From an uncultured Acidobacteriota bacterium (GTDB lineage: Bacteria; Acidobacteriota; Vicinamibacteria; Vicinamibacterales; UBA2999), in NCBI GenBank assembly GCA_902826065.1, contig CADEDM010000002.1, positions 2,829-66,828 on the forward strand: DNA of 64,000 nucleotides. The letters run 5' to 3'. This document shows positions 31,643-61,534 of this stretch, piece after piece. The notes under the pieces were generated by a model, which was given only the letters and a program-made list of their open reading frames with translations, was not told the origin of the DNA and ran no database searches. How positions within the stretch are numbered: position 1 is the stretch's first letter; each line of letters opens with the position of its first letter. A program made the position numbers and the translations under genes.

Positions 31643-33004
31643 TCATGCCGGTGGGGACGCCACCGGCGCTGGTCCCTCCAGCACGTCTCGCCGTGGCGAC
31701 GCCGCCACCGCCTGGTCAGTGGCGTCCGCGACGACCTTGGCCGTCGCGAGCGACTGCTGACGGCGGCCGAGCCAGAGGCCCAGCATCGTCCATCCCAGGC
31801 CGAGCGGCACGGCCAGCCCCGCGAGGCCGGCGAGGCCGAAGCCCAGCATCGCCAGGCCGCCTTCGGTCCAGGCGCCGATGACATCGCCGCCCCGGTAGAC
31901 GAACGTGTCCGTGAACGCCTTGGCCTTGTACTTCTCCTCCCGCGTCACCACCGTGAACAGGGTCTCCCGCGCCGGTCGCGTCACCGCCCGCTGGATGGCC
32001 CTGAAGCCGGCATCGAAGAGCACCAGCACCGCGAACGACCCGGCGATCGCCAGACCCAGGAAGCCGAGCGACACGAGCACCGGCAGCATCGCCAGCGCTA
32101 CGGCCACGCCGAGCCGCTTCATCAGGTGGCCGGTCACGACCGCCTGCAGCACCAGCGTGGTCACCTGGGTGATGAGATCGATCTGCGCGAACACGGTCGC
32201 GCGCATGTCGGTGTCGTCGCCCAGGGCCGCCACCATCTGGAGGCGCGTGAAGTAGATGAACGTGGCCGTCACCGTCATCAGCAGCACGTAGATCGAGATG
32301 CCCGAGAGGTAGCCGCTGCGGAAGACGGAACCGATGCCGGCCCACGCGTTGCCGCCGATGACCGCCCGCTCGTCGGCACCGGCGGCACCGGCCTCGAGCC
32401 CGGGCTGCAGCCACGCCACCGTCCACGCCGCGACGATCGCCAGGACCAGGAACGCCGCCGAGACCAGCAACATCGACGCCGTCCCCAGCGGCTTGACGAG
32501 CAGGCTCGCCAGCCACGGGCCGGCGATCGCGCCCAGCGTCCCGCCCACGGCAATCACGCCGAACAGCCGCTTGCTCTGCTCGAGCGTGAAGCGGTCGGCC
32601 ATCAACGCCCAGAACAGCATCGTGCTGAACAGGTTGAAGACGCTGAACCAGACGTAGAAGACGCGGCCGCTGGCCTCGCCCACGGCGCTTGGTGCCAGCG
32701 TCAGCAGCAGGTAGAACGCCACCAGGCTGGCGGCGAAGAACCCGTAGGTGGCCGTGATGAACACCAGCCGCCGGAAGCGGCTCACCAGCCACCCGAACAG
32801 CGGATTCACCGCCAAAGTGACCAGCGCCGTGCCGATGAAGAGCCAGCGGATCGCGTCGAGCCCGCTGCGCATGCCGAGCGCGTCCCGAGCCGGACGCAGC
32901 ACCATCAGCGCCGTCAGCACGAAGAAGAAGTAGAGCGCGGCGGCGGTGAGCGGCGCGACCTCGTCGCGCCGGACGTTGAAGAGGCGTTGCGTGAACGACT
33001 GCAT
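31643..33004 (-). CDS. MFS-fold transporter resembling the ATP:ADP antiporter (TLC/Npt1-like) family
   Basis: About 12 TM segments. The N-terminus LFNVRRDEVAPLTAAALYFFFVLTALMVLRPARDALGM matches the TLC-type N-terminal pattern as I recall it. Substrate unknown. Confidence 0.8.
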   Translation of the reverse strand: MQSFTQRLFNVRRDEVAPLTAAALYFFFVLTALMVLRPARDALGMRSGLDAIRWLFIGTALVTLAVNPLFGWLVSRFRRLVFITATYGFFAASLVAFYLLLTLAPSAVGEASGRVFYVWFSVFNLFSTMLFWALMADRFTLEQSKRLFGVIAVGGTLGAIAGPWLASLLVKPLGTASMLLVSAAFLVLAIVAAWTVAWLQPGLEAGAAGADERAVIGGNAWAGIGSVFRSGYLSGISIYVLLMTVTATFIYFTRLQMVAALGDDTDMRATVFAQIDLITQVTTLVLQAVVTGHLMKRLGVAVALAMLPVLVSLGFLGLAIAGSFAVLVLFDAGFRAIQRAVTRPARETLFTVVTREEKYKAKAFTDTFVYRGGDVIGAWTEGGLAMLGFGLAGLAGLAVPLGLGWTMLGLWLGRRQQSLATAKVVADATDQAVAASPRRDVLEGPAPVASPPA

Positions 33005-33055
33005 GGCGGGCCCTCGATCCGCGACGAGTCTAAGCCGATGCGCGCATTGGGGTTG

Positions 33056-33101
33056 ATACCCGGTTCAGGTTATTGACGGCCCCCCGGCCCCCCGGTAGCC
33101 T
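33056..33101 (+). promoter_or_regulatory. Palindrome ATACCC-N6-GGTTAT fused to a sigma70-like promoter (TTGACG-N17-TAGCCT)
   Basis: The sequence read directly is ATACCCggttcaGGTTATTGACGgccccccggccccccggTAGCCT. It lies 128 nt upstream of the TonB-receptor ATG at 33229. The geometry matches the sites at 41940, 44807, 56716 and 56791. Confidence 0.6.
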
Positions 33102-33228: not shown

Positions 33229-36162
33229 ATGATGACGCAGTTCACTCGAAGACTCGCGGCGGTCGTCGCGTCGAGTCTGATCGCCTGTGTCGCGGCCGTC
33301 CCGGCCGCTGCGCAGACCACGACGACCAACTCCGGGATTCAGGGAGCCGTGGCCGACGACACCGGCAGCGCGCTGCCCGGCGTGACGGTCACGATCACGA
33401 GCCCGGCGTTGCTGGCACCGCAGGAGACGATCACCAGCGACGCCGGACGGTACCGCTTCACCACGCTGCCAGGTGGCGTCTACACGGTGAAGTTCCAGCT
33501 CACCGGGTTCAAGACGGTCGAGCGTGAGAACGTGCAGGTCGCCGCGAACTTCGTCGCCAGCATCGACGCGAAGATGGAGCTGGGCGGCATCGAGGAGACC
33601 ATCACGGTGGTCGGCGAATCGCCGGTCGTCGACACGCGCACGGTCGCCGCCGTCTCGACGATCAAGACCGAGAGCTGGGAGCTGCTGCCGTCATCGCGCA
33701 GCTACGAGGACATGGGCAAGCTGGCGCCCGGCATCCGCGTCAGCGGCATTCCCGACGTCGGCGGCAGCAAGACCGGCGGCGGCCGCGGCTCGCTCATCAA
33801 CTACGGATCGAACCAGGGCGGCAGCACGCTGATGTTCGACGGCGTGAACACCGACGGCGTGGCCGGCTACTACGACGTCGGCGCCATCGAAGAGATGGTC
33901 ATCCGGGCCGCCGGCAACGACCCCGAGATCGCCACGCCGGGCATGACGTTCCAGACCATCGTCAAGTCGGGCGGCAACCAGTTCCATGGCATGGCGTTCG
34001 GGGCCTTCCAGACGCGCAGCATGCAGGGCAACAACGTCACCGATGCCCTGCGGGCCCAGCGCGTCACCGCCGGCAACCCGATGGACCACTACTTCGACGT
34101 CAACGCCTCGCTGGGTGGACGGCTGATCCGCGACAAGCTGTGGTTCTTCACCAGCATCCGCAACAAGGAGTACGTCGACGAGCCGATCGGCTTCGCCCGT
34201 GACCCCGGCCCCGACGGCCTGTGGTGGACCGGCGACGAGCCGGCCGGCCAGGTCAAGAACAGCGAGTCCTCGGGGAAGAAGCCGTCCGGCGTCAAACTGA
34301 AGTACCAGCTGTCGAACACCCAGGCGCTGTCGTACATGCACTTCGCCAACACGAAGTACTTCGACGGCAACGACGCCGACCTGAACCACAACGGCGACTC
34401 GGTGCACCCGCAGGTGCACTGGAACCAGATCTACAACGCGGAATACACGTTGTTCCCGACCCGCAACGGCGTGTTCACGACGTCGTTCGGCAACGCCGGA
34501 TGGCACTCGCGTCACGTGCCCAACGACAGCGTCGGCGCGCGCACGCTGCAGAGCGCCTTCGACACCGTCACCCTGCGCTGGACCGGGCCCGGCTTCGACA
34601 ACAAGTCGGCCGGCGTCGACGAGCCGACGCCCACCGGCAACAAGAGCTACCGCTACCAGTGGGTCGCCAACTACTCGCACTTCGTTCCGCGCCTGCTCGG
34701 CATGGAGCATGACATCAAGACCGGGTTCTACGTCGCGCAGGACGCCTACAATCGCTTCCAGCGCGTGCGCTCCGACGACGAAGGCGGCGCCAACCACGAC
34801 TACCTGGCGGTCTTCGCCAACGGCGTGCCGATCGAAGTCGTCACCTACAACTCGCCGTTCGTCGCCCAGAACAGCGTCGGCCATCAGAGCTGGTTCATCC
34901 GCGACAACTTCCGCGTCGGTGACAAGCTCACGTTCAATGCCGGCATCCGCCTCGAGCGCTACCACGTCTACCTGCCGGAGCAGTCGAAGGAAGCCGGCCA
35001 GTTCTCGCAGGCCGCCAGCTTCGCCTACAAGTCGCTCTACGACTGGCGCGACTGGGCGCCACGCGTCGGGCTGTCCTACGCCATCAACAACAAGACCGTG
35101 GTGAAAGCGGCGTGGGGCCGCTTCAACTTCGCGATCCGTGCCGACACCGCCGGCGTGGTCCGCCCGTTCAACCTGAACGACCACACGCAGCGCCGCTACC
35201 GCTGGAACGACCTCAACGGCGACGGCATCTTCAATGGCACGTTCAATCAGGCCACGGGCGCGGTTGGCGGGGAGTTCGGCAACTTCATCGGCACCGACCC
35301 CGGCACCGGCTCGTCGAGCCAGATCCTGAACCAGGACCTGAAGCAGCCGAAGACCGACGAGTTCACGGTCTTCGTCGAGCGCGAGGTGATGAGCGCGCTG
35401 TCGGCGCGCGTCGGCTACGTCTACAAGACGCAGTTCGACCGCTACCAGGTGGTGAACCTCGACCGGCCGTACGACGCGTTCAACGTGCCGGTGACCGCCC
35501 GCGACCCCGGTCCCGACGGCGTGCTGAACAGCGCCGACGACGGCGCCTCGGTGACGTACTACGACCTGAACCCCGCCAATCGGGGCAAGGAAACCCTGAT
35601 GGCGATCAACCCGGACGGGTTCACCGACCGGTATCACAACATCGACGTCGCCCTGACCAAGCGCCTGTCGCGTGGCTACCAGTACGCGGTGACCTACCTG
35701 GGCACGAAGCGCAACGCCTTCACCGGTGGCGTCTTCCCGATGGACCCCAACGCGGCCACCTTCTTCGCGAAGGACCAGTCGTGGGAGCACACCTTCCGCG
35801 CCAGCGGCAGCGTGTCACTGCCGCTCGGCTTCATGGCCTCGTCGGTCTACGAGATCCAGAGCGGCACGGCCCAGGCGCGTGACGTGCAGTTCCGCACCGG
35901 CCTGCCCACCTTGAGCAGCCTGACGCTGCGGATGGAGCCGGTCGGCTCGGTGCGCCTGCCGGCGGTGAAGCTGCTCAACGTGCGCGCCGCCAAGCGGTTC
36001 TCGCTGCGGGGGCAGAACGTGACCCTCGAGTGGGACCTGTTCAACGCCCTGAACTCGAACTCCGCGACCAACATCACGCGGCGGTCGGGTCCGAACTTCA
36101 ACCGTATCAACGCCATCCTGCCGCCGCGCGTGATGCGGCTGGGTCTGGTCTACTCCTTCTAG
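33229..36162 (+). CDS. TonB-dependent receptor with N-terminal carboxypeptidase-regulatory-like domain
   Basis: The start is set to ATG 33229 (MMTQFTRRLAAVVASSLIACVAAVPAAAQ), preceded by an AGGACGAACGAGG RBS-like stretch. CarboxypepD_reg-like IQGAVADDTGSALPGVTVTITSP...GRYRFTTLPGGVYTVKFQLTGF. It ends in LVYSF (terminal Phe). Confidence 0.9.
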   Translation: MMTQFTRRLAAVVASSLIACVAAVPAAAQTTTTNSGIQGAVADDTGSALPGVTVTITSPALLAPQETITSDAGRYRFTTLPGGVYTVKFQLTGFKTVERENVQVAANFVASIDAKMELGGIEETITVVGESPVVDTRTVAAVSTIKTESWELLPSSRSYEDMGKLAPGIRVSGIPDVGGSKTGGGRGSLINYGSNQGGSTLMFDGVNTDGVAGYYDVGAIEEMVIRAAGNDPEIATPGMTFQTIVKSGGNQFHGMAFGAFQTRSMQGNNVTDALRAQRVTAGNPMDHYFDVNASLGGRLIRDKLWFFTSIRNKEYVDEPIGFARDPGPDGLWWTGDEPAGQVKNSESSGKKPSGVKLKYQLSNTQALSYMHFANTKYFDGNDADLNHNGDSVHPQVHWNQIYNAEYTLFPTRNGVFTTSFGNAGWHSRHVPNDSVGARTLQSAFDTVTLRWTGPGFDNKSAGVDEPTPTGNKSYRYQWVANYSHFVPRLLGMEHDIKTGFYVAQDAYNRFQRVRSDDEGGANHDYLAVFANGVPIEVVTYNSPFVAQNSVGHQSWFIRDNFRVGDKLTFNAGIRLERYHVYLPEQSKEAGQFSQAASFAYKSLYDWRDWAPRVGLSYAINNKTVVKAAWGRFNFAIRADTAGVVRPFNLNDHTQRRYRWNDLNGDGIFNGTFNQATGAVGGEFGNFIGTDPGTGSSSQILNQDLKQPKTDEFTVFVEREVMSALSARVGYVYKTQFDRYQVVNLDRPYDAFNVPVTARDPGPDGVLNSADDGASVTYYDLNPANRGKETLMAINPDGFTDRYHNIDVALTKRLSRGYQYAVTYLGTKRNAFTGGVFPMDPNAATFFAKDQSWEHTFRASGSVSLPLGFMASSVYEIQSGTAQARDVQFRTGLPTLSSLTLRMEPVGSVRLPAVKLLNVRAAKRFSLRGQNVTLEWDLFNALNSNSATNITRRSGPNFNRINAILPPRVMRLGLVYSF

Positions 36163-36188
36163 CCGCGCCGCGGCCGGAGAATCCGCAT

Positions 36189-36224
36189 GAGCCGGCGGTC
36201 GGGGGCGATCCCCTCCGCCGGCTC
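36189..36224 (+). terminator. Strong GC stem-loop between the TonB receptor and the UxuA-like gene (attenuator or terminator candidate)
   Basis: GAGCCGGCGG-tcgggggcgatcccct-CCGCCGGCTC has a perfect 10-bp outer stem plus an inner GGGG/CCCC pairing. There is no U-tract. Confidence 0.4.
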
Positions 36225-36277
36225 GTCGTGCACCATGAGCCCCGCGGCGCGCCCGCGGTCGAGGAAGGAAGAGCGTC

Positions 36278-37594
36278 ATGAAGAAGGTCGAAGAAGCGTT
36301 GGATCAGTCGCGCGAGACGATGGCGGCGGACCTGGAATACCAGGAGTTCCGCCAGCGCTACAAGGGTGAGCTGGAGTACTTCAAGACGCCGGGTCACCGG
36401 TTCTCGCGGCGCACCCTGGGGCGTCTGGCGATGGGCGGCGCAGCGGCGGCCACCGCGCTCGGCAACGTGCGGGCCCTGAATGCCGCGGCCCGCGACGTCC
36501 TGAACGACGGCACCGGCGTCAAGCTCTGCCATCGCCCGATCGGCAACAGCACCAAGCCGTCGGATGACGATCTGCGCTTCATCAAGGAGATCGGCTTCAA
36601 GTGGTGCTACGCCAACGGCCGCGGCGCCGACGGCAGCTTCATGTCGGTGGATGAGCAGAAGGCGGCGAAGAAGCGCTACGCCGACGCCGGCCTGGCACTG
36701 CACAACATCCGCTACATCCTCGGGGGACGCGGCAACTACGCGCTGAACACGCTGCTGCTCGACCTGCCCGGCCGCGCCGAGGCGACCGAACATCTGAAGC
36801 AGTTCATCAAGGCCACGGGGAAGAACGGCGCCGGCTTCGACTACACGGGCTCGCGCCTGATGATCACGGGCGTGTGGGCCAGCGGCGAGGTCGACATCCG
36901 CGCCGGCTCCATGTCGCGCCAGTTCGATCCGGCGTCGCCCGAGGTGCGCGGCAGCGACTTCCTCGGCATGATGGAGAAGGGCGCGAAGCGTCCGGCGCAC
37001 GGCCTCAACACGCTCTACTGGGGCCGCGAGTACAAGTACGACGAGGTGATGACGCACTTCAAGAATCACTTCGTGAAGGACATCGTGCCGGTGCTGGAGG
37101 AAGAAGGCGTGTTCATCGCCTTCCACGGCCCCGATGACCCGCCGGGATTCGAGAGCCTCGGCGGTGTCGCCCGCGTGCTGGCCAACTACCAGCGCATCAA
37201 GAACATGTTCGCGGCGGCCAACAGCGACTACGTCGGCATCCAGTTCTGCGCCGGCAGCTGGAACGAGGGCGGCCCGCTCATGGGCAAGGACATCCTCGAG
37301 GCGCTGAAGGAGTTCGCGACGCTGCGCAAGTACCGCGAGATCCACTACCGCAACGTGTCGAGTCCGCCGGTCAACGGACAGCCGAAGTTCAACGAGGTGT
37401 TCGTCGACGCCGGCTACTACGACTACTACAAGATCATGAAGACGGTCGTGGACATCGGCTGGGACGGCCTGGTGCACCTCGATCACGCGCCCGACATGGT
37501 GGGCGCGCCGTACACCTATCCGGCCTACGCCGCGGGCTTCATGCACGGCATGCTGCAGCGCGCGAAGAACTCACCGAAGGGGCTGACCTCGTAG
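36278..37594 (+). CDS. UxuA (mannonate dehydratase)-like TIM-barrel protein with internal twin-arginine signal-like segment
   Basis: GGAAGGAAG RBS followed by ATG. FSRRTLGRLAMGGAAAATALG lies about 42 aa from the N-terminus. C-terminal motifs REIHYRNV and GLVHLDHAPDM are homologous to the 55551-56672 paralog (FNIHLRNI, MLCPDHVPEH). Confidence 0.83.
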   Translation: MKKVEEALDQSRETMAADLEYQEFRQRYKGELEYFKTPGHRFSRRTLGRLAMGGAAAATALGNVRALNAAARDVLNDGTGVKLCHRPIGNSTKPSDDDLRFIKEIGFKWCYANGRGADGSFMSVDEQKAAKKRYADAGLALHNIRYILGGRGNYALNTLLLDLPGRAEATEHLKQFIKATGKNGAGFDYTGSRLMITGVWASGEVDIRAGSMSRQFDPASPEVRGSDFLGMMEKGAKRPAHGLNTLYWGREYKYDEVMTHFKNHFVKDIVPVLEEEGVFIAFHGPDDPPGFESLGGVARVLANYQRIKNMFAAANSDYVGIQFCAGSWNEGGPLMGKDILEALKEFATLRKYREIHYRNVSSPPVNGQPKFNEVFVDAGYYDYYKIMKTVVDIGWDGLVHLDHAPDMVGAPYTYPAYAAGFMHGMLQRAKNSPKGLTS

Positions 37595-37608
37595 CCCCGG
37601 GGCTCCGG

Positions 37609-37633
37609 CCGGCGGCGACTCCACCGCCGCCGG
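37609..37633 (+). terminator. GC stem-loop after the UxuA-like gene
   Basis: CCGGCGGCG-actccac-CGCCGCCGG has a perfect 9-bp stem 15 nt after the stop. Confidence 0.35.
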
Positions 37634-37718
37634 TCGGACACCCCTTCTCGTGGCGGTCCGCCCGCCCGTGTCCGCCCGTGCGTCCTCCGCACGGTCTCTC
37701 GCATCCTGGAGCCGCATC

Positions 37719-39590
37719 ATGGGCAAGCCGCGCTCGCGTCCCGTCAACCGGCGGGATTTCATCACCAAGGGCGCCGCCGCCGGCGTGGCCGCCACCGCGA
37801 TGGCCGGGCTCGGCGCCACGGTGCCGGACGCCGAGGCGCAGACGCCGCGCCAGTGGGACCTCGAGGCCGACGTCGTGGTGATCGGATCAGGCGCCACCGG
37901 CCTGCCGGCGGCCATCCGTGCCCGCGACAAGGGCGCCAGCGTGATCGTCGTCGAGGCCAACTACGACGTCGGCGGGCACGGCATCCTGAGCGGCGGCAGC
38001 CTGCCGCTGGGCGGCGGCACGAGCTGGCAGAAGCAGCACGGCATCGAGGACTCGCCCGACCAGGTGTTCCGCGACCTCACCGACTGGTCGGTGGTGCTGC
38101 CGCACGGCATCGCCGACTACCGCTACAACGACCGCGAGGTGCAGCGCGCCTTCGCCGACAACTGCGCCGCGACCTTCGAGTTCCTGATCGCCAACGGCAT
38201 CGTGGTCCGGCCGCCGGCGTTCGACTCCGGATCGGTGGGCCTGTCGGCGTTGCGGATGTCCGCGCCCGTGCTCGAGGGCGTGAACGTGCCCAGCCCGATG
38301 AGCCCGGGCGGCGGGCGCGGGGCCGCCAACATCCGGCCGCTCGAAGCCAGCGCGCGCGCCAAGGGCGTGCGCTTCCTGCTGAATTACCACATGGATAGGA
38401 TCCATCGTGAGTCGCCCACCGCGGGGCGCGTGCTGGGGCTCGAAGCCAGCTACAAGCCGCGATTCCTGCCCGGCAGCACGACGCGCATGGAGAGCTATCG
38501 CTCGGAGGGCAACATCGACCTGCGCAAGCCGACCGTGAACGTGCGCGCCCGCCGCGCCGTGATCATCGCCAGCGGCGGCAGCTCGAGCAACGTGAACTTC
38601 CGTCGCATCTTCGACCCCCGTCTCACGGAGGAACATCAGGTGGGCGGGGAGCCGTATTCGTTCCAGGACGCCAGCGGTGAGCTCGCGGCGATGTCGATCG
38701 GGGCATCGCTGTGGGGCACGGCGAACGCCTTCGAACGGCGCCGCGTCATCATGAAGCGCAACGTCGTCGGCGCGCAGTACACCTACACGCAGTGGGGGCC
38801 CAACAGCCCGCTGTTCCCGTTCACGCGCGCCCGCGGGCTCAACATCGGCATCCCGGGCTGGCAGCACGTGATCAGCGTCAACCAGGTGGGCAAGCGCTTC
38901 TGCGACGAGACGCACGGCGAGCTGCCCGACGGCACCGGCTACGGCCTGATCGAGAACTACGTGCCCGGCAGCGTGCGCAACACGAAGGCCAAGCCGCACG
39001 CCAACGCCGACGGCGTGAAGCAGGAGACGCCGCTCTACGTGCACGCCGCGCTGGCGATGAACGAAGGCTCGATGCCGCCCGACTACGCCGCCGGCCCCGT
39101 GTGGGTGATTTTCGACGCCGCCGCCGCCGCGCGCCGCAAGTGGAACGTCGAGCCGCCCAACGTCGACCTCGACCAGGGCTATTTCTTCGTCGCCGACACC
39201 CTCGAGGAGCTGGCCCGCCAGGTCACCCGCAACAAGTACCAGAAGGTGCCGATGCCGCCGGCCAACCTCGCGGCCACCGTGGCGCGCTACAACTCGTTCG
39301 TCGACCTCGGCCGCGACGAGGACTTCGACAAGCCGACGCCGCGCTACAAGATCGACACCCCGCCCTTCTACGCTGCCTGGGGCACCCCGGTGTGCCACGA
39401 CACGGTCACCGGCCTGCGCATCAACGGACGGTGTCAGGTGCTCGACCTGCGCGGCCAGGTGATTCCCGGCCTGTATTGCGGCGGCGAGTCGGCCGGCGGC
39501 AGCAACCAGCACGGCTGGGGCCGGTGTTCCTGCCAGGGCTACATCTCCGGTGGCAACGCCGCCGAGGACGTCGCCACGACGAGCCGCTAG
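37719..39590 (+). CDS. Tat-signal FAD-dependent oxidoreductase (fumarate reductase/KstD-like flavoprotein fold)
   Basis: The start is set to ATG 37719 (MGKPRSRPVNRRDFITKGAAAGVAATAMAGLG, a twin-arginine signal). FAD Rossmann DVVVIGSGATGLPAAIRARDKGASVIVVEANYDVGGH. The C-terminal motif is GLYCGGESAGG. Confidence 0.88.
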   Translation: MGKPRSRPVNRRDFITKGAAAGVAATAMAGLGATVPDAEAQTPRQWDLEADVVVIGSGATGLPAAIRARDKGASVIVVEANYDVGGHGILSGGSLPLGGGTSWQKQHGIEDSPDQVFRDLTDWSVVLPHGIADYRYNDREVQRAFADNCAATFEFLIANGIVVRPPAFDSGSVGLSALRMSAPVLEGVNVPSPMSPGGGRGAANIRPLEASARAKGVRFLLNYHMDRIHRESPTAGRVLGLEASYKPRFLPGSTTRMESYRSEGNIDLRKPTVNVRARRAVIIASGGSSSNVNFRRIFDPRLTEEHQVGGEPYSFQDASGELAAMSIGASLWGTANAFERRRVIMKRNVVGAQYTYTQWGPNSPLFPFTRARGLNIGIPGWQHVISVNQVGKRFCDETHGELPDGTGYGLIENYVPGSVRNTKAKPHANADGVKQETPLYVHAALAMNEGSMPPDYAAGPVWVIFDAAAAARRKWNVEPPNVDLDQGYFFVADTLEELARQVTRNKYQKVPMPPANLAATVARYNSFVDLGRDEDFDKPTPRYKIDTPPFYAAWGTPVCHDTVTGLRINGRCQVLDLRGQVIPGLYCGGESAGGSNQHGWGRCSCQGYISGGNAAEDVATTSR

Positions 39591-39592
39591 CC

Positions 39593-40564
39593 GTGGCCGC
39601 GTCCCCGCCCCGGTCGCTCGGCCACGCAGTGACGATCGGCGTGCGTCCGGCCGTGCCGGCGGCCGTCGACGCCGGCGCCGCGCTCACAGTGCGTCTGTTC
39701 GTCGCCTGCCGTTCGGGCTGCGACCTGCGCGGCCGCATCGTGCGCCTGGTGGCCCCCGATGGCGCCGTCACCGTCCACGAGCTGACCGGCCACGTCGACG
39801 GCACCACCGTCACCGACGAGATCTGCGTGCACACGCCGCACGCGGCCGGGGTCTCGACCTGGGGCCTCGTGTTTCCCGGCCATGCGGCCGGCCGTGTGAC
39901 CCACGACGCGGCGGCGGTCGCCATGGACGTCGATGTGCGGCCTCACGACACCAGCGTCGTGGTGTGGGACGTCCCGTCACCCGTGCCGGTGGGCACGCCG
40001 TTCACCGTCAAGGTCGGCGTCCGCTGTGCCACGCTGTGCCGCCTGACCGGGCACGCCGTGGAGGTGCGGGCCGACGGCGTCACCGTGGGCCGCGGCACGC
40101 TGGGCGCGCTGCCGTGGCCCGACACGCGCGGGCTGCACTGGGCCGAGGTGCCGGTGGTCGCCCCTGCGACGCCGGGCCTGGCACATTGGGCCGGCATCTT
40201 CACCGGCGTCAACGCCACACCCGACCATCGTGCCTCGCAGGCGCCGTTCACCTTCAGGGTCGAGCCGCCGCCGGCCCACCGGGTGGCGCTGACCGTGACC
40301 GTCCGGGACACCGGCGCGCCACTCGGGGGCGCCGACGTGCGCGTCGGCGTGTACCGGGCGGTCACGGACGCCGCCGGCCAGGCCGACGTGCCGGTGCCGG
40401 CGGGGTCGTACGATGTCGTGGTGGAGACCGATGGATTCGCCGGTCATCTGCCCGGGCTCGACGTGCACGGCGACGTGTCCGTGACTGTCGCGGCCGTGCG
40501 CACGCCGACCGAGGCCGAGGAGCACGAGGCGCTGGAGCGCTACGAAGCCAGTCAGTGGGGATGA
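39593..40564 (+). CDS. Hypothetical protein: two about 105-aa repeats each with a CxxxC pair, plus a carboxypeptidase-regulatory-like beta-sandwich. No signal peptide.
   Basis: GTG 39593 lies 3 nt after the flavoprotein stop, in the frame of track ORF 38711-40564. Only the part downstream of 39593 looks protein-like. Repeat cores are LTVRLFVACRSGCDLRGRIVRLVAPDGAV and FTVKVGVRCATLCRLTGHAVEVRADGVTV. The C-terminal stretch is TVTVRDTGAPLGGADVRVGVYRAVTDAAGQADVPVPAGSYDVVVETDGF. Confidence 0.62.
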   Translation: MAASPPRSLGHAVTIGVRPAVPAAVDAGAALTVRLFVACRSGCDLRGRIVRLVAPDGAVTVHELTGHVDGTTVTDEICVHTPHAAGVSTWGLVFPGHAAGRVTHDAAAVAMDVDVRPHDTSVVVWDVPSPVPVGTPFTVKVGVRCATLCRLTGHAVEVRADGVTVGRGTLGALPWPDTRGLHWAEVPVVAPATPGLAHWAGIFTGVNATPDHRASQAPFTFRVEPPPAHRVALTVTVRDTGAPLGGADVRVGVYRAVTDAAGQADVPVPAGSYDVVVETDGFAGHLPGLDVHGDVSVTVAAVRTPTEAEEHEALERYEASQWG

Positions 40565-40617: not shown

Positions 40618-40640
40618 GGCGGACGCTAGCGTCGTCCGCC
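40618..40640. terminator. Stem-loop between convergent genes
   Basis: GGCGGACG-ctagcgt-CGTCCGCC has an 8-bp stem abutting the stop of the 40640-41899 gene. Confidence 0.35.
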
Positions 40641-41939: not shown

Positions 41940-41985
41940 ATGATAGGAGGACGCGCTGCCCGGAAGAATACCCGGATGAGGGTAC
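41940..41985 (-). promoter_or_regulatory. Palindrome ATACCC-N6-GGGTAC plus -10 TATCAT (minus-strand promoter for 40640-41899)
   Basis: The minus strand reads GTACCCtcatccGGGTAT-N22-TATCAT. The 19-mer AATACCCGGATGAGGGTAC matches AATACCCTGATGTGGGTAT at 44834 in 16 of 19 positions. Confidence 0.6.
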
Positions 41986-41999
41986 GGCCGCGCCGGCCG

Positions 42000-42686
42000 T
42001 CAGTCCCCGGCGTCGACCCAGGTCACGCCCAGGGCGTCGAGCTTGCCGCGCAGGCCGTACAGGTCCAACCCGAGCTCGCCGGCGCGCAGGCGCTCGCGCG
42101 TCGCGCTCTCCTTGCCCTGCCGAGCGGTGGCCGCGGCGAGCACCGCGGCGGCGTCCTCACGGCGCACTACCGCGACCCCGTCCGCGTCGCCCACCAATAC
42201 GTCGCCCGGGCGAATCCGCGCGCCGGCGCACACCACCTCGACGTTCACCGAGCCAGGCGTCGCCTTCACAGTGCCCTGCGCGTGCACCGCCTTCGACCAG
42301 ACGGGGAAGTCCATCGACGCGAGCTCGGTCACGTCGCGGACGCCGGCGTCGATCACGAGGCCGCGCACACCATGGGCGCGGCACGACTCGGCCAGGAGCT
42401 CGCCGAACATGCCGTCGGTCGACTCGGAGGTCGTGACCACCACGAGCACATCGCCCTCGCGGGCGACGTCGAGGGCGGCGTGGATCATCAGGTTGTCGCC
42501 GGCCTGGCACAGCACCGTGAGCGCGGTGCCGGCGACACGCGCGCCTGGGTAGATGGGCCGCATGTACGGCCGCAACAGGCCGATGCGGCCCTGCGCCTCG
42601 TGCACGGTGGCGACGCCGAACACGCCGAGGGCATCGGCGAGCGCGCGATCGGTGCGGGGCGGATTCCTGACGATCACGTGGCTCAC
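42000..42686 (-). CDS. RraA-family class II aldolase (4-carboxy-4-hydroxy-2-oxoadipate / HMG aldolase, GalC/LigK-like)
   Basis: GTG 42686 starts VSHVIVRNPP and forms a GTGA overlap with the upstream gene stop. RraA-like GDVLVVVTTSESTDGMFGELLAESCRAHGVRGLVIDAGVRD. The remaining 222 codons of track ORF 42000-43352 overlap the PIG-L gene out of frame. Confidence 0.86.
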   Translation of the reverse strand: MSHVIVRNPPRTDRALADALGVFGVATVHEAQGRIGLLRPYMRPIYPGARVAGTALTVLCQAGDNLMIHAALDVAREGDVLVVVTTSESTDGMFGELLAESCRAHGVRGLVIDAGVRDVTELASMDFPVWSKAVHAQGTVKATPGSVNVEVVCAGARIRPGDVLVGDADGVAVVRREDAAAVLAAATARQGKESATRERLRAGELGLDLYGLRGKLDALGVTWVDAGD

Positions 42687-43405
42687 AGCAGCCCCTCGAC
42701 GACCAGTGGATAGACGCGCTCGAACGCCTCGGCGACGCGGATGCCCTTCCGTCCGCCGTTGCGCACGGCCTGGCTGCCACGCCGCTTGCCGAGGTCGCTG
42801 TAGTAGTCCACCAGATGGCCCTGCGCCTGCATCGATCGCATCGCCTCGAGCTTGCGCTCCCACACCGGCGTCACGTCGAGCAGCACCTGCGGCACGAAAC
42901 CGCACTGCTCCGGCTGGTGCGGCTCGAACAGGAACACCGGCGGCGCGCCCAGCACCGGTCCCGGCGCCGGATGGCCCATGGCCTGGGCGTAGACGCGCGC
43001 CTGCAGCGTCACGGTGTGCGCCACTGGATGGTCGAAGTTGTACGGGTCGAGGCGCGAGTGGGTGAGGATGCAGGCCGGCTGCAGCGTCTTCAGCTCTTCG
43101 ACCATGGCGTCGATGGTCGCATCGGTCGGTCGCAGCGGGTAGTCGCCGGAGTCGAAGAACCTGACGTCCGCGCCGAGAATCCCGGCTGCCCGCGTCGACT
43201 CGGCGCGCCGGATCTCCTTGACGCGCGCGGTCGTCATGTCCGGCTCCGCCCACGCGCCCTGGCTCTCGCCGCGCTCGCCGAACGACAGGCACAGGATGCG
43301 GACGCGATAGCCGGCCGCGGCATAGAGCGCGATGGCCCCGCCGGCCCGCCACACGAAATCGGCGGCGTGGGCGCTCACCACCACGATGGACTGGCCGTCG
43401 CTCAT
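42683..43405 (-). CDS. PIG-L/LmbE-family protein, GalB-like (putative 4-oxalomesaconate hydratase)
   Basis: IVVVSAHAADFVWRAGGAIALY is a PIG-L-type N-terminal metal motif variant. It is translationally coupled to the RraA-like aldolase, as galB-galC are in the Pseudomonas putida gallate cluster (recalled knowledge). Confidence 0.8.
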   Translation of the reverse strand: MSDGQSIVVVSAHAADFVWRAGGAIALYAAAGYRVRILCLSFGERGESQGAWAEPDMTTARVKEIRRAESTRAAGILGADVRFFDSGDYPLRPTDATIDAMVEELKTLQPACILTHSRLDPYNFDHPVAHTVTLQARVYAQAMGHPAPGPVLGAPPVFLFEPHQPEQCGFVPQVLLDVTPVWERKLEAMRSMQAQGHLVDYYSDLGKRRGSQAVRNGGRKGIRVAEAFERVYPLVVEGLL

Positions 43406-43445
43406 GCCGTCTCTCCGGGTCGGGGGCCGCAGCTGCGGCCGCCGT

Positions 43446-44762
43446 TCACTGTACCCGCGCGGCAGGCGCGACGGTCATCGACCGCAGGTCGCGGCCACGC
43501 GTCTCGGGCAGCAGCGAGGCGAAGAGCACCACGACCACGTAGGCGCTGATGGCGCAGATGCCCATCGCCACCCCCAGCGGTACGGTGGCGCTGAGGAAGC
43601 CGACCAGCGACGGGAAGATCGAGCCGATTGCCCGGCCGGAGTTGCCGGTGAAGCCCTGCGCGGTGCCGCGGATGCGGGTGGGGAAGAGCTCTGCCAGGAA
43701 CGCGCCGGTGCCGGCGGCCGTGCCCGACTGCAGCGTGCCCAGGACGAACCCGAGCAGGAACGTCGCCGCCGACGTGATCGGCGCCAGCGTATAGACCGCC
43801 ACCGCGGCAGCCTGCAGGCACGCGCAGGTGATGAACGTCCGCCGCCGTCCGATGCGGTCGGCGAGGAAGCCGTTGACGAACGCGCCGCAGAACGACCCGA
43901 GGATGTTCACGGCCAGGTAGCCACCGACGTTCAGCACCGACAGGCCGAGCGACATCTTCAGGTAGGCCGGCAGCCACGTGATCATCACGTAGTTGCCGCC
44001 GTAGATGCCGGTCGTGAGCATCGAGGCCTTGAACGTCGTGCCGAAGTGGCCGTCGCGGAAGATGTCGAGCAGCGAGGCGTGCCCGTCGGTCTTCGCCCGC
44101 TCCCGCGCCTCGAGGTAGATCGGCGCTTCCTTCACGTTGCGGCGAATCCACAGCACCGCCAGCGACGGCAGGAAGCCCGTGAAGAAGAACACGCGCCAGG
44201 CGTATTCCGGCGGCAGGTAGCTGAAGAGGACGGTCGAGAGCAGCACGGCGATGCCGTAGCCCACCGCCCAGCCCGCCTGGATGGCACCGACGACGCGGCC
44301 ACGCAGCCGCGGGTTGATGACCTCGCTGATCAGCACGGCGCCCACCGCCCATTCGCCGCCGAACCCGAGCCCCTGCAGGCTGCGGGTGAAGAGGAGCTGC
44401 TCGAACGAGTTGGTCAGGCCCGACAGGAACGTGAACGTCGAGAACCAGATGATGGTGATCTGCAGCACGCGCACCCGGCCGATGCGGTCCGAGAGCATGC
44501 CGGCCAACCAGCCCCCCAGCGCCGACATGATCAGCACCGCGGTGCCCAATATCCCCGCCTGACCGGTCGACATGTGCCACAGGGCGATCAGCGTCGGGAT
44601 CGTCAGCGCGTACATCTGCGTGTCGAGGGCATCGAGCGCCCAGCCGCTGAAGCACGCGAAGAAGGTGCGGCGCTCGTCGCGCGACAGTTCGCCGTACCAG
44701 CTGAAGGCGCCGGTTCGCTCGGTGGGCCGGGTGGCGGCCGCTGAGGCAACAGACTGATCCAT
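43446..44762 (-). CDS. MFS transporter (metabolite/aromatic-acid:H+ symporter type)
   Basis: The start is set to ATG 44762 (MDQSVASAAATRPTERTGAFSWYGELSRDERRTFFACFSGWALDALD). MFS signature MLSDRIGRVRVL. 12 TM segments. Confidence 0.9.
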   Translation of the reverse strand: MDQSVASAAATRPTERTGAFSWYGELSRDERRTFFACFSGWALDALDTQMYALTIPTLIALWHMSTGQAGILGTAVLIMSALGGWLAGMLSDRIGRVRVLQITIIWFSTFTFLSGLTNSFEQLLFTRSLQGLGFGGEWAVGAVLISEVINPRLRGRVVGAIQAGWAVGYGIAVLLSTVLFSYLPPEYAWRVFFFTGFLPSLAVLWIRRNVKEAPIYLEARERAKTDGHASLLDIFRDGHFGTTFKASMLTTGIYGGNYVMITWLPAYLKMSLGLSVLNVGGYLAVNILGSFCGAFVNGFLADRIGRRRTFITCACLQAAAVAVYTLAPITSAATFLLGFVLGTLQSGTAAGTGAFLAELFPTRIRGTAQGFTGNSGRAIGSIFPSLVGFLSATVPLGVAMGICAISAYVVVVLFASLLPETRGRDLRSMTVAPAARVQ

Positions 44763-44806: not shown

Positions 44807-44852
44807 ATGATAGCGACCGGTCGGGGACCGGCAAATACCCTGATGTGGGTAT
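44807..44852 (-). promoter_or_regulatory. Perfect palindrome ATACCC-tgatgt-GGGTAT plus TTGCCG-N16-TATCAT promoter (MFS-galB-galC operon)
   Basis: The minus strand reads ATACCCacatcaGGGTAT-TTGCCG-gtccccgaccggtcgc-TATCAT. It sits in the 143-bp divergent region shared with the LysR gene. Confidence 0.65.
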
Positions 44853-44885
44853 GCGCGACGGCGGTCCGCACGGGCGTGCGGTCGC

Positions 44886-44891
44886 TACAAT
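44886..44891 (+). promoter_or_regulatory. -10-like TACAAT for the LysR gene
   Basis: TACAAT lies 15 nt upstream of ATG 44906. The -35 is weak. The implied leader is very short. Confidence 0.35.
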
Positions 44892-44905
44892 GGCCGGCGC
44901 CGACG

Positions 44906-45841
44906 ATGATCGACGGACTGCGTCAGGTGCGTGCGTTTCTCGCCGTGGCGCGGCTGCGCAGCTTCGTGCGCGCCGCGAGCGAACTGCACGTGTCGCAGCC
45001 GGCGCTCACCGTCCAGGTCCAGCAGCTCGAACGCACCCTGGGCGTCAAGCTGCTCGAGCGCAACAACCGCAGTGTCGCGCTCACCCGCGCCGGCGAAGAC
45101 ATGCTGCTGCCGCTCGAGCGGCTGCTCATGGACGCCGAGGCCATCCTGGGCCGCGGCCACGACCTCCTGCACCTCCGCCGCGGCATCCTGGCCATCGCCG
45201 CCGTGCCCACAGTGGCCGCGGCGATCCTGCCGCCGGTGCTGCGCGAGTTTCGCGAGGCGTATCCGGCCATCACGGTGCGGGTGCGCGACGATGTCGCGGC
45301 GAACTTCCAGGACCTCGTGCGCTCGGGCGACGTCGACGTGGGCATCGGCGGCCACCTGCCGCACGATCACACCATCGCCACCGAGGATCTGTTCGCCGAT
45401 CCCATCTGTGTCTTCGCGCCGCACGGCCATCCGCTGGCGCGCAAGCGCCGTGTCACCCTGCGCGACGTCGTCGGGCACGACGTCATCATGCCGAGCCGCC
45501 TGCTGAGCGTGCGGGCCACGCTGGAGCAGGGCCTGCAGGAACAGGGCCTGTCGATTCGACCGGCGCACGAGACCAGTCACTTCTCGACCGCGGTCGCGAT
45601 GGTGAATGCCGGCCTGGGCGTGTCGATCCTGCCGTATATCGCTTACGCCTGTTACCGCTCGACCCAGGTGCGCTGCCTGCCGCTCCACGACCCGCCGCTC
45701 GAACGTCGCATGGTGATTGCTGCGCCCGAAGGCCGGCAGCCGTCGCCGGCGGTCGAGAAGTTCAAGGAGATCCTGCGGCGGCGCACGGCCGAATACACCG
45801 CCACGCTCTCGGCGGTGATGGTCACGCGGCATGCCGGCTAG
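44906..45841 (+). CDS. LysR-family transcriptional regulator
   Basis: The start is set to ATG 44906 (MIDGLRQVRAFLAVARLRSFVRAASELHVSQPALTVQVQQLERTLGVKLLERNNRSVALTRAG). It is divergent from the MFS operon. Confidence 0.9.
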   Translation: MIDGLRQVRAFLAVARLRSFVRAASELHVSQPALTVQVQQLERTLGVKLLERNNRSVALTRAGEDMLLPLERLLMDAEAILGRGHDLLHLRRGILAIAAVPTVAAAILPPVLREFREAYPAITVRVRDDVAANFQDLVRSGDVDVGIGGHLPHDHTIATEDLFADPICVFAPHGHPLARKRRVTLRDVVGHDVIMPSRLLSVRATLEQGLQEQGLSIRPAHETSHFSTAVAMVNAGLGVSILPYIAYACYRSTQVRCLPLHDPPLERRMVIAAPEGRQPSPAVEKFKEILRRRTAEYTATLSAVMVTRHAG

Positions 45842-56715: not shown

Positions 56716-56761
56716 ACATTCCGTCGCGCGCTGCCGGCCGTCAATACCCTCGAGTGGGTAG
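56716..56761 (-). promoter_or_regulatory. Palindrome ATACCC-tcgagt-GGGTAG with TTGACG-N17-GAATGT on the minus strand
   Basis: The minus strand reads CTACCCactcgaGGGTATTGACG-N17-GAATGT. It lies upstream of the UxuA-like/PQQ operon. The spacing from half-site to -10 is the same 22 nt as at the other four sites. Confidence 0.55.
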
Positions 56762-56790
56762 ATGGCGATCGGCGCCGTGGCTGGCCGCGC

Positions 56791-56841
56791 CGTCAATACC
56801 CTGCACGGGTTATTGACGACTCCTGCACCTGCTCTTAGTGT
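56791..56841 (+). promoter_or_regulatory. 28-bp palindrome CGTCAATACCC-tgcac-GGGTTATTGACG with TTGACG-N17-TAGTGT promoter
   Basis: Read directly from the sequence. It contains ATACCCtgcacgGGTTATTGACG, the same core as the 33056 site, and lies 111 nt upstream of the cupin ATG. Confidence 0.6.
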
Positions 56842-57597: not shown

Positions 57598-58233
57598 CTA
57601 CTGCAGGTGAATGATGCCGCGGCGCAGCGCCACGGTCACGGCCGCACTGCGGTCGTTCACCTTCAGCTTCGTGAGGATGTTGCGCACGTGCACGTGGGCG
57701 GTCTCCTCGCTGATGCCCAGCGCCGCGCCCACTTCCTTGTTGCGCATGCCCTGCGCCACCAGCGCCATCACCTGGACCTCGCGAGGCGTCAGCGTCGGCC
57801 CGCTGGCCCTGGCCGCCAGCTGCGCCGCGACCTCCGGCCGCACCGGGTGGCCTCCGGCATGGACTTCACGCACGACGCGGACCAGGTCGTCCGACAGCAT
57901 GTCCTTCAGCAGGTAGGTCGTCGCGCCGGCCTCGATCGCCCGGAAGATGTCCTCGTCGCCCTGATACATCGTCAGCACGACGATACGGGCCGCCGGGTCG
58001 AGTTTGTGAATCTCGCGGATGGCCTCGACGCCGTTCATCGATCCGAGCTGCAGGTCCATCAGCGTGATGTCCGGCCGCAGGTTGCGATACTGCTCGATGG
58101 CGGTCTCGCCGGACGAGGCGACGCCGACGACCTCCATGTCGGCCTGCCGGCCGATGATGAGCGAGATGCCGTCGCGAACGATGCGGTGATCGTCGACGCA
58201 GAGGACGCGGATGGTCTGGGGACGTGGAGGCAT
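57598..58233 (-). CDS. NarL/FixJ-family response regulator
   Basis: IRVLCVDDHRIVRDG and ITLMDLQLGSMNG form the receiver. The HTH is LTPREVQVMALVAQGMRNKEVGAALGISEETAHVHVRNILTKL. Confidence 0.92.
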   Translation of the reverse strand: MPPRPQTIRVLCVDDHRIVRDGISLIIGRQADMEVVGVASSGETAIEQYRNLRPDITLMDLQLGSMNGVEAIREIHKLDPAARIVVLTMYQGDEDIFRAIEAGATTYLLKDMLSDDLVRVVREVHAGGHPVRPEVAAQLAARASGPTLTPREVQVMALVAQGMRNKEVGAALGISEETAHVHVRNILTKLKVNDRSAAVTVALRRGIIHLQ

Positions 58234-58238
58234 GAGCT

Positions 58239-61200
58239 TCAGGCGGCGACGGGCACGCTGGCGCGGATGTGGGTGCCCTGGTTGGGGTGACTGGTGATGA
58301 CGAGCGAGGCGCCGATTTCCTCGGCGCGCTCGCGCATGCTGATGAGGCCGTAGTGGTCGGCGGAGGTCTCCACCGCCACGTGATGGTCGAAGCCGCAGCC
58401 GTCGTCGGAGACCTGCAGCGTGATGTCGGCCTGGGTGTAGGAGAGATCGACGCGGATGGTGCCAGGCCGGGCGTGCCTGACGGCGTTGTTGATGGCTTCC
58501 TGCCCGATGCGCAGCAACTCGCCTTCGACCGTGCTCGAGCAGGGCCGCGGGTCGCCGTCGACCTCGAACTCGAAGCGAATCCCCTGATCGGCGGTGGCGT
58601 GTTCGCCCACGGTGCGAAGCGCCGTCATCAGGTCACCGCGACGCAGGCGTTGGGAGCGCAGTTCGAAGATCGCATGCCTGGCCTCGCGGATGTATTCCTC
58701 GACCTGCTTGCGCATCCGGACGAAGCTGCGGCGCATCCCGGGCGCATTCACTTCGACGTCGGCGGCGATGGCGTCGAACTGCAGCGCGACCCCCACGAGG
58801 CCCTGGAGCAGCGTGTCGTGCAGTTCGCGGCTGAGGCGGACCCGTTCGCCGAGCAGCAGCGCGAACTGGCGGCGGATCTGGCGTAGACGGAGCTGCCAGA
58901 CGGCCCACACGCTCAGCGCCAGCATGATGACCACACCCGTCGTGAACCAGGTGGTCTGGTAGAACATCGGGGCGATGGCAAAGGCGAAGGTGGCGTCACG
59001 ATCGAGCCACGAGCCGTCGGCCGCGCTCGCCTGGACGCGGAACGCAAAGTTGCGCGGCGGCAGGTTGGTGTAGAAGGCCGTGCGGCGCGTGCCGGCTTCG
59101 ACCCAGTCCGCGTCGAACCCGTCGAGCCGATAGCGGAAACGCGTGCGCTGCGGCGAGCTCAGGTTCAGCTCCGAGTAGCCAATCTCCAGTCGCGTGGTAC
59201 GGGCGGGCAGCGTCAACCCCATCACCGGCTCGAACGGCGTCTCGTCCGCGCGCACGAACTCGATGGCCATGGGCCGCCGGGTCGGCGCCTCGCGGAGCGC
59301 GCGGGGGTTGACGATGCTGAGGCCGCGCGACGTCACGAACCAGAGCCGCCCGTCGCCGGCGCGGACGACGCGACGATTGTTGTTGTAGGCGTGGGGAAGG
59401 CCCGCCAGGCCGTCCGACCGGTCATACGAGGTGTAGGGAATGTCCGCCGCCCGGCCGTCGGCGACGGCGTCGTAGTCGTCGCGTGACATCCGGAGCAGGC
59501 CGAAGCCGGTGCCGATCCACAGCGTGTGGACGTCGTCTTCGGTGACCGCCGTGAGGTCGCTGACGGGAAAGCCGTGATCGGAACGCACGGTGACGAACCG
59601 GCCGCCGGCGAACTTGCTGAGTCCGCCGATCGCGGCCAGCCACAGGGCGCCCTCGTCGTCCTCGAAGATCTGCCGCACGGTGCCGGCGCCCAGGCCATCC
59701 GCCGGACCGTAGAACGTGAATGCGCCGGTGCGATCGCGGATGGCGACCCGGCCGTCGGCCAGGGCGGCCCAGAGACGGCCACCCCGATCGGTGTGCAGCA
59801 CCTTGATGCGGGCGCCGCCCAGCGCTGGCGGCAAAGCGATGGGCGTGAGCGCGCCTCGACTCCACCGCAGGAGGCGTTCGGCCTGGTCGTAGATCCAGAC
59901 CCCCCCCGCCAAGTCCGAGGCGATCAAGTCGACGACATGCATGCGCGGTATCGGCAGCGGCACCGGAGTGGTCGTTCCGGCCGCCATTCGCGCGAAGTAC
60001 CGATCGGTCGCGATCCAGATCGCGCCGCGCTCATCGGCGTACATCGTCCTGAGCCTGGCGCCGGCGAGGGACACGCGGGTCGGGGCGGACTCGTCGCCGC
60101 CGGACACGTAGCGCATCAGGCTCTCGTCGGTGGCGACCCACACGCTCCGGTCGGGGGTGATCTCGATGCCCGCCACCAGTCCTTGATCGGTGAGCTGGCT
60201 GACGCGGCGTGGCGTGAGGCGATTGAGACCCTCGGTGGTGCCGGCCCAGATGTTGCCGTCGCGGTCTTCGAGCAGGGCCCCGACGCCGTCGCTCAGCAGG
60301 CCCGTGAGCGAGCTGGCGCGATCCGTCTGGAACCCTCCGGCTGGTCGCGGACGCACCCTCCACAGGCCTTGACCGATGGTCCCGATCCACAGGTTCTGCT
60401 GGCGATCCACGAGCAGCCGGTAGCCCCGACCCCGTTCGGCGAGCTCGAAGCGCGCCGGCGCGACGCCGCCGACGGCGTGATAGCCCGCGGTCCAGTCGTT
60501 GACGAGCACGCGGCCGGTCGGGTCCTCGACGAACGACCGCGGAAAACCGCCCACGATGGCCGGGACCCGGCCCGACGCGTCTTCGGTGAAGCTGCGTTGG
60601 AACCGGCCGACGAGGCCGGCCTCGGTCGGCTCTTCGGTGTCGGCATCGATGGTCTCGATGCGGGTGAAGATCGTGCCGCGCGGCTCGCGGCGCAGGATGC
60701 CGGTGGCCGTGCCGACGAAGAAGCGGCCGGCGCGATCGACGAACGTGCTGTAGACCGCGGCTTCCGGCAGGCCGGCGTCAGCGCCGACGTGATGCCAGCG
60801 GCCGTCGCGGAAGCTGAAGAGGCCCTTTTCGCCGCCGGCCCAGATGGTGCCGTCGAGGTCCTCGGAGATGGTCATGAATGCGGCGCCGGGCACACCGTCG
60901 TCGGCGCTGTAGGTGCGCGTCTGCTCGGCGAGGATGCGCGCGATGCCGCCGGTGTTGCCGTAGCCCACCCACACGCTGCCGTCGGTGGCGACGAACAGGG
61001 CCCGCACCGGCTTGCGGCCGGCGTCGGCCGTGGGAGCGGAGCGCCACGGTGTGAACCGCACGCCGTCGAAGCGCTGCAGCCCGCCGTCGGACCCCACCCA
61101 GAGATAGCCGTCGTGGTCCTGCGCCAGCGCCCACACGTTACCGGGCGGCAGGCCCTCGCGCTGACTCCAGGAGGTGATCGTGTAGTCGGTGAGGACGTTC

Positions 61201-61292: not shown

Positions 61293-61534
61293 AACCGTTC
61301 CGTCGAACGCGGGCACGGTATACCGCAGACCTGTCGCTGTCAATCGAGCTCGGTCGTGATTCCGTTTCAGGGAATGTCGCTGCAGCGTCGATAATGCGAC
61401 GCGAACCACGGCGCCCGGCTGCCGGAGGGGTGCGCTGCTGCGGCGATAGAATGAACGGCCCTTGAACGACGCCGGCGCACCGGGGCGGCACGGGCCGCGC
61501 GCGGCGGCCGTTCGCGCGGCCTGAGGGACCTCAC

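Follow-up and report, generated by a model that had tools for sequence, protein, structure and literature searches.

Among the response regulators of the NarL/FixJ family, NarL of E. coli offers the closest described counterpart to the locus presented here. NarL sites are composed of two inverted heptamers with 2 bp between them, an arrangement termed 7-2-7 (PMC9314961), and the NarL output domain has been co-crystallised with an engineered high-affinity site, TACCCCTAAAGGGGTA (PMC4549865). One 7-2-7 site centred at −44.5, 32 bp upstream of the −10 element of ogt1052, is enough for activation (PMC9314961). The NarL site of yeaR is located just upstream of the −35 element and centred at −43.5 (PMC10853779). 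In a cryo-EM structure of the activation complex, helix alpha9 of NarL reads bases via K188, V189 and K192, and the alphaCTD is contacted (PMC10853779).

The window analysed in this study, a stretch of 64,000 nucleotides from an uncultured bacterium of the Vicinamibacterales (Acidobacteriota), carries five palindromes, here called boxes, that resemble such sites. A search for ATACCC-N6-GGGTAT with up to two mismatches returned exactly five sites in the window, at 33056, 41968, 44835, 56744 and 56796, and thereby recovered the related sites that an earlier note on this DNA had placed at 41968, 44835 and 56744. Dinucleotide shuffles give an expectation of 0.44 for this dyad in the window, against five observed, and of 0.00 for the exact pattern of the earlier note, which had rightly considered a chance occurrence to be rare. 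In the whole genome (5.65 Mb in 416 contigs, 97%-complete), no site apart from the five boxes of the window matches with one mismatch or fewer. A genome-wide scan with a position weight matrix (PWM) built from the five sites, proposed in the earlier note, separated them clearly from the background, as the weakest box scored 21.0 bits and the next best site of the genome 15.7 bits. With a matrix of the box arms and a threshold of at least 16 bits, the genome again returned these 5 sites only. Since the five boxes stand alone in the genome, the motif appears to mark a strictly local regulon of about 24 kb.

Box 1 (33056..33073, + strand) is a palindrome of the sequence ATACCCGGTTCAGGTTAT, which in a direct reading of 33056-33101 is followed by TGACGG and, at the end, by TAGCCT. 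Box 2 (41968-41985) reads GTACCCTCATCCGGGTAT on the − strand, and box 3 (44835-44852, − strand) is a perfect palindrome. Boxes 4 (56744-56761, − strand) and 5 (56796-56813, + strand) are close neighbours, with centres 52 bp or about 5 helical turns apart (56739-56818). Box 5 is flanked by TTGACG on both sides, which together form a 28-bp palindrome with a −10 partner on the right flank only. All five boxes fit TACCCnn-NN-nnGG(G/T)TA with A/T at the flanks, and heptamer positions 6-7 vary among them. Using TACYYMT as the heptamer consensus for membership, the five boxes can be assigned by sequence to the 7-2-7 operators of the NarL/FixJ family, i.e. inverted heptamers 2 bp apart, and the engineered NarL site fits TACCC-N6-GGGTA exactly. 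As previously described, every box is intergenic and aimed at a gene start, boxes 1 and 5 facing the + strand and boxes 2, 3 and 4 the − strand. A terminator or a repeat element was considered and rejected on account of the short 6-bp arms, the spacers that are not conserved and the fixed distance upstream of genes, and no T-tract or terminator was detected.

The boxes share a fixed position relative to their promoters. The putative promoter of the TonB-receptor operon (33073..33101, + strand) is composed of TTGACG (33073-78), a 17-nt spacer and TAGCCT (33096-33101), and box 1 has a single base in common with it, the first T of the −35 element. The fusion of palindrome and −35 that the earlier note had seen in 33056-33101 is thus present, and the same composite recurs at box 5 (56796..56841, + strand), with TTGACG at 56813-18, a 17-nt spacer and TAGTGT at 56836-41. 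On the − strand, the promoter of box 4 (56716..56761) contains TTGACG (56739-56744), 17 nt and GAATGT (56716-56721), and those of box 2 (41940..41985) and box 3 (44807..44852) have TATCAT 22 nt behind the box, at 41940-41945 and 44807-44812, respectively, the latter as TTGCCG-N16-TATCAT. Considering orientation, the distance from the proximal half-site to the −10-like hexamer is exactly 22 nt at all five boxes, as had been claimed; the hexamer conforms to TANNNT at four of them and is the poorer GAATGT at box 4. A TTGACG −35 element with 5/6 consensus positions overlaps the box by one base at boxes 1, 4 and 5. As GGGTAT is continued by TG only on the side of the promoter, TTGnnn is better regarded as a −35 element than as a part of the dyad.

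The centre of the 16-bp core is located 31 bp upstream of the predicted −10. In a published convention, distances of 29 and 32 bp to the −10 correspond to a CRP site at −41.5 and a NarL site at −44.5, respectively (PMC9314961). On this scale, and with start sites taken from the predicted −10 hexamers, the boxes would be centred near −43.5, in agreement with the −43 of the earlier note. This predicted position equals that of the NarL site of yeaR and is only 1 bp off the distance in ogt1052 (31 versus 32 bp). The location of the boxes just upstream of or abutting the −35 element thus supports an activator-type geometry, as had been suggested. A consensus scanner called the promoter of box 3 alone. 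The other four fell below its threshold; they match the consensus in 8/12 positions, as does the promoter of the TonB-receptor operon, or possess a poor −35 element, so that each is weak in one element. The failure of four out of five promoters in a consensus scan fits a need for an activator.

The genes faced by the boxes encode mainly functions in uptake and catabolism. Downstream of box 1 lies an operon (33229..40564, + strand) that, according to Pfam, codes for a TonB-dependent receptor with a CarboxypepD_reg domain (33229-36162), a UxuA-like TIM barrel (36278-37594), a FAD_binding_2 flavoprotein (37650-39590) and a small protein with a weak, below-cutoff CarboxypepD_reg match (39593-40564). 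In the opposite direction, a hexamer TAGACT (33028-33033, − strand) is found 23 nt from box 1 and about 24 nt before the ATG (33004) of a divergent MFS transporter gene (31643..33004, − strand). Box 1 may work in both directions and serve this gene as well. Box 2 faces a 2-hydroxyacid-dehydrogenase-like gene (40640-41899, − strand). Box 3 precedes an operon on the − strand (42000..44762) for an MFS transporter (43446-44762), a PIG-L-family protein (42683-43405) and a LigK/GalC-type 4-carboxy-4-hydroxy-2-oxoadipate aldolase (42000-42686), the last of which scores over the NCBIfam equivalog cut-offs. GalB of the gallate/protocatechuate 4,5-cleavage pathway is a PIG-L-fold hydratase, and we take the box 3 operon to resemble the lower part of this pathway. 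By analogy, this likeness suggests that the substrate of the regulon yields 4-oxalomesaconate. Box 4 faces a Tat-signal UxuA-like gene (55551-56672, − strand) and a PQQ dehydrogenase gene (53451-55547, − strand), and box 5 a gene for an exported cupin-like protein (56850 or 56952 to 57557, + strand; Pfam match below the gathering cutoff).

The gene of a candidate regulator is found some 0.8 kb away from boxes 4 and 5. The gene at 57598..58233 (− strand) specifies a NarL/VraR-type response regulator with a receiver domain and a GerE/LuxR helix-turn-helix (Pfam Response_reg 1.2e-26, GerE 8.7e-20), whose best PDB matches are VraR and NarL. Read from the sequence, its receiver has an acidic pocket (D14, D15) together with D60, T88 and K110. 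Its recognition helix is ETAHVHVRN, with H180, V181 and R184. We presume that it aligns with the NarL helix STVKVHVKH, in keeping with the HMMER coordinates; on this mapping, Val189 of NarL is kept, Lys192 is replaced by Arg and Lys188 by His. The gene forms an operon with that of a sensor kinase (58239..61400, − strand, true start near 61300-61400), in which the kinase comes first and the regulator second with a 5-nt gap between them. The kinase consists of periplasmic Reg_prop beta-propeller repeats and a Y_Y_Y domain, one transmembrane segment, HisKA_3 and HATPase. From the sequence, the boxes would thus have a matching REC+GerE regulator with its HisKA_3 kinase encoded nearby. In the window of this genome, no box was found upstream of the kinase-regulator operon itself.

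The boxes and relatives of the regulator also occur together in other genomes. We collected 80 loci with regulator relatives from one-genome-per-species contigs, mostly metagenome-assembled genomes of Vicinamibacterales or other Acidobacteriota selected for their similarity to the regulator; with one further locus from the same genus (L022), the set comprised 81 loci and 1.38 Mb. In nearly all of them, a kinase gene is located immediately upstream of the regulator gene. A box-arm PWM trained on the five window sites only found 30 matches of at least 14 bits in these 1.38 Mb, versus 1 for the reversed PWM used as control, and 18 versus 0 at a threshold of at least 16 bits. Allowing up to one mismatch to the consensus, 15 matches were obtained in the 80 loci, versus 0 in the control. 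The background was estimated in the whole genomes of 40 relatives (about 195 Mb), with 38 matches versus 27 in the control. Together these counts correspond to a roughly 50-fold enrichment of boxes near regulator relatives, although several matches are orthologous copies and the independent events are therefore fewer than the matches. A box lies within 10 kb in 22/81 loci; the matches are mostly situated directly before the kinase gene or directly behind the regulator gene. The promoter spacing recurs as well: out of the 30 foreign boxes, 10 have TANNNT at exactly 22 nt, any other distance between 10 and 37 nt being represented at most twice, and further ones have the near-matches TACAAC, TAGAAA, TAGAAC and CACAAT at 22 nt. 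Where an ORF could be called, the genes below the foreign boxes encode mostly exported proteins, which by a look at their N-terminal sequences include CarboxypepD_reg TonB receptors, PQQ dehydrogenases, haem-c and cupin-like proteins. Consistent with recognition by this type of helix, a box occurs in 22/50 loci in which the regulator carries V-H where NarL has V189-H190, and in 0/30 loci with other helices (Fisher p = 4e-6 with loci taken as independent and kinship ignored). Hence, as judged from sequence comparison, the box and the regulator orthologs are found together.

In some relatives of the regulator that are 64-67% identical (L039, L046, L050, L051 and L056), the helix reads T(H)GYIKS instead of xVHVKN, and TACCC-N6-GGGTA does not occur nearby. 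Presumably this subfamily reads a different operator; a palindrome scan and an alignment upstream of the receptor genes in these loci gave no convincing dyad of the same spacing. Another group of boxes (L040 2085, L045 6926, L068 6990, L053 6980 and L049 6977) is located about 100 bp upstream of the kinase gene and has no −10 at the 22-nt distance; two of them, those in L040 and L045, have TACAAT at about 39 nt. Such boxes may permit autoregulation of the kinase-regulator pair from a more distal position.

The closest relative, G041, has a regulator 86% identical to the one described here and a rearranged cluster (L027). Boxes are kept there before the genes for the dehydrogenase-like, cupin-like and UxuA-like proteins, the MFS operon and the receptor, and the ortholog of box 2 precedes TTGACG-N17-TAGTGT. 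Two extra boxes in G041 (L119 4007 and L115 1501; one of them perfect, ATACCCAGGTTAGGGTAT) are found before two more TonB-receptor paralogs with −10-like hexamers 21-23 nt away, and the regulon is larger in that genome. In the scan of the 40 genomes, the promoter geometry was encountered at the matches of G008 and G001 only, where GGGTAT-N22-TAGGAT stands before a gene 5 kb from a regulator-kinase pair with 57% identity. A match in G022 lies before a receptor gene and has TAGCCT at 24 instead of 22 nt; the contig ends there. Identical matches in G003 and G024 were taken as chance, being in or at the end of coding frames.

Together, the uniqueness of the five sites in the genome and their shared spacing support the common regulon of five promoters put forward in the earlier note. 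We consider it probable, at roughly 0.72, that the boxes are the operators of a local two-component regulon which is activated by the adjacent NarL/VraR-type regulator in a class II-like manner. That this protein binds the boxes and acts as an activator, not as a repressor, is inferred, as are the start sites and the signal. In such a regulon, the periplasmic beta-propeller/Y_Y_Y domain of the kinase would sense a compound, and the co-transcribed kinase would phosphorylate the regulator (57598-58233). The phosphorylated dimer would then occupy each box near −43.5 and attract RNA polymerase to promoters with one weak element each, in the manner of NarL at yeaR. Transcription would be switched on for the TonB receptor/UxuA-like/flavoprotein operon by box 1, the dehydrogenase-like gene by box 2, the MFS/PIG-L/LigK-type aldolase operon by box 3, and the Tat-UxuA-like/PQQ-dehydrogenase operon and the exported cupin-like protein by boxes 4 and 5.

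The same regulator could instead act as a repressor that blocks the −35 element until a signal removes it. The overlap of the box with a −35 of 5/6 consensus positions at boxes 1, 4 and 5 would allow this, and NarL is known to repress some promoters, for example frdA (PMC4549865). However, the 22-nt spacing is exact both here and in other genomes, as a contact with polymerase needs and simple blocking does not, and the promoters have weak −10 or −35 elements. Moreover, repression sites of NarL are situated near +1, whereas sites at −43.5 and −44.5 activate (PMC9314961, PMC4549865, PMC10853779). The precise and conserved distance, together with the weakness of the promoter elements, speaks for activation, and we regard repression as unlikely, even if it is the least unlikely of the alternatives. 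Somewhat less probable is recognition of the boxes by a DNA-binding protein encoded elsewhere, such as a NarL-family paralog. The genome encodes about eight NarL-type regulators and the assignment to the adjacent one is sequence-based, but the paralogs are at most 50% identical to it, and the box accompanies orthologs of the adjacent protein, and does so only where these carry the V-H helix.

The two candidates named in the earlier note fared less well. The adjacent LysR-type protein (44906..45841, + strand), divergent from box 3, would have to bind all five boxes and control the cluster. Box 3 in the divergent LysR/MFS intergenic region is a classic LysR layout, the ATAC...GTAT ends of the box resemble LysR boxes, and in G041, the one close relative sharing the whole cluster, a 77% identical LysR stands beside the orthologous box. 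Nevertheless, the lysR gene adjoins only one box out of five, and the box is ATAC-N10-GTAT (T-N14-A) rather than the T-N11-A of LysR-type sites. An ortholog is absent from all 18 same-genus genomes searched, among which G008 and G001 still have a box with the 22-nt geometry, and a homolog occurs in 0/81 regulator loci, which hold 30 boxes. LysR as the common regulator is thus improbable, slightly more so than a paralog from elsewhere. As for CRP/FNR-type class II activators, their case was built on the 5-N6-5 spacing of the half-sites, which equals that of CRP sites, and on a position close to class II. Taking TGTGA-N6-TCACA or TTGAT-N4-ATCAA centred at −41.5 as the criteria for this class, the half-sites TACCC/GGGTA are unlike TGTGA or TTGAT, and the centre is 31 bp from the predicted −10 versus 29 bp for a class II CRP site (PMC9314961). 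Furthermore, a six-frame search of the 97%-complete genome yielded 0 matches to PF13545 and PF00325; among the control genomes, PF13545 was found in 14/14 and PF00325 in 9/14. We therefore give a CRP/FNR-type protein next to no chance, far less than any other alternative.

Box 3 has a second neighbour to consider. On the − strand its distance to TATCAT is 22 nt; on the + strand TACAAT, situated before lysR, is 33 nt away (44853-44905). In G041 the corresponding distance is 43 nt (L117 1519-1620). The difference amounts to one helical turn and hints at an additional effect of box 3 on the lysR promoter, exerted from a class I-like position. The LysR protein may thus be a downstream or second-tier member of the regulon.

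Returning to the two-component regulon activated by the NarL/VraR-type regulator, the combination of box, NarL-like regulator and beta-propeller/Y_Y_Y kinase could represent a recurrent module of the Vicinamibacterales, similar to a polysaccharide utilisation locus (PUL). It would induce TonB-dependent receptors and exported oxidative enzymes (PQQ dehydrogenases, Tat-exported UxuA-like TIM barrels, flavoproteins and cupin-like proteins) in response to a periplasmic substrate and would here be coupled to a LigK/GalC-type lower aromatic pathway. We offer this broader reading tentatively, with a chance that we place just under even. If true, the PUL-like module would provide a predicted regulon and a signalling route for a periplasmic catabolic pathway not described before, in a soil lineage that is dominant but uncultured.

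For the Vicinamibacterales, whose gene regulation is almost entirely undescribed, the present analysis adds a precisely delimited predicted regulon, in which one candidate two-component system is assigned five operators and about six transcription units. This regulon would tie the TonB receptor, the Tat-exported enzymes and the operon of the 4-carboxy-4-hydroxy-2-oxoadipate aldolase to one signal. In metagenome-assembled genomes of related organisms, the box can serve as a genomic marker of genes for uptake and catabolism that are regulated together, and it may guide the search for the inducing substrate.

The predicted system combines features of several described ones. With E. coli NarL/NarP it shares the TACCC...GGGTA core in inverted heptamers 2 bp apart and a REC+GerE regulator with a HisKA_3 kinase, with NarL, on the presumed alignment, also the V-H-V-(K/R) core of the recognition helix, and the single dimer site predicted just upstream of each putative −35 element resembles those of NarL at yeaR and ogt1052. 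In contrast to NarL, the presumed counterpart of K188 is His here and heptamer positions 6-7 are not conserved. The sensors NarX/NarQ are replaced by a periplasmic beta-propeller/Y_Y_Y kinase, and the predicted regulon covers a TonB receptor and periplasmic or catabolic enzymes instead of nitrate respiration. It is strictly local, in contrast to the about 100 genes under the control of NarL. Activators of the LuxR/TraR type belong to the same helix-turn-helix superfamily and likewise use a dyad overlapping or abutting the −35 element for class II-type activation, which is predicted for the present boxes. They are ligand-gated and have no receiver domain, and their lux and tra boxes, centred near −42.5 and 18-20 bp long, have other sequences. 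The LysR-type boxes of BenM/CatM, ATAC-N7-GTAT at a site near −65, have the ATAC/GTAT ends in common with ours, one of which lies in a divergent lysR intergenic region. Our boxes differ in having a spacing of N10 and in abutting the −35, and they do not accompany LysR from genome to genome. Hybrid two-component systems of Bacteroides, which serve polysaccharide utilisation loci through a fused AraC-type output domain, have a similar periplasmic sensor of Reg_prop beta-propeller and Y_Y_Y and lie adjacent to genes for TonB-dependent receptors and enzymes. The present system, from the phylum Acidobacteriota, divides kinase and regulator between two proteins and has a NarL-type helix-turn-helix as its output. 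Thus, the enterobacterial NarL box and its −43.5 geometry would be reused in a distant phylum together with a glycan-sensor-like kinase. On the evidence of the sequence comparison, the design is most likely one already known in kind, namely a NarL-family 7-2-7 activator site at −43.5.
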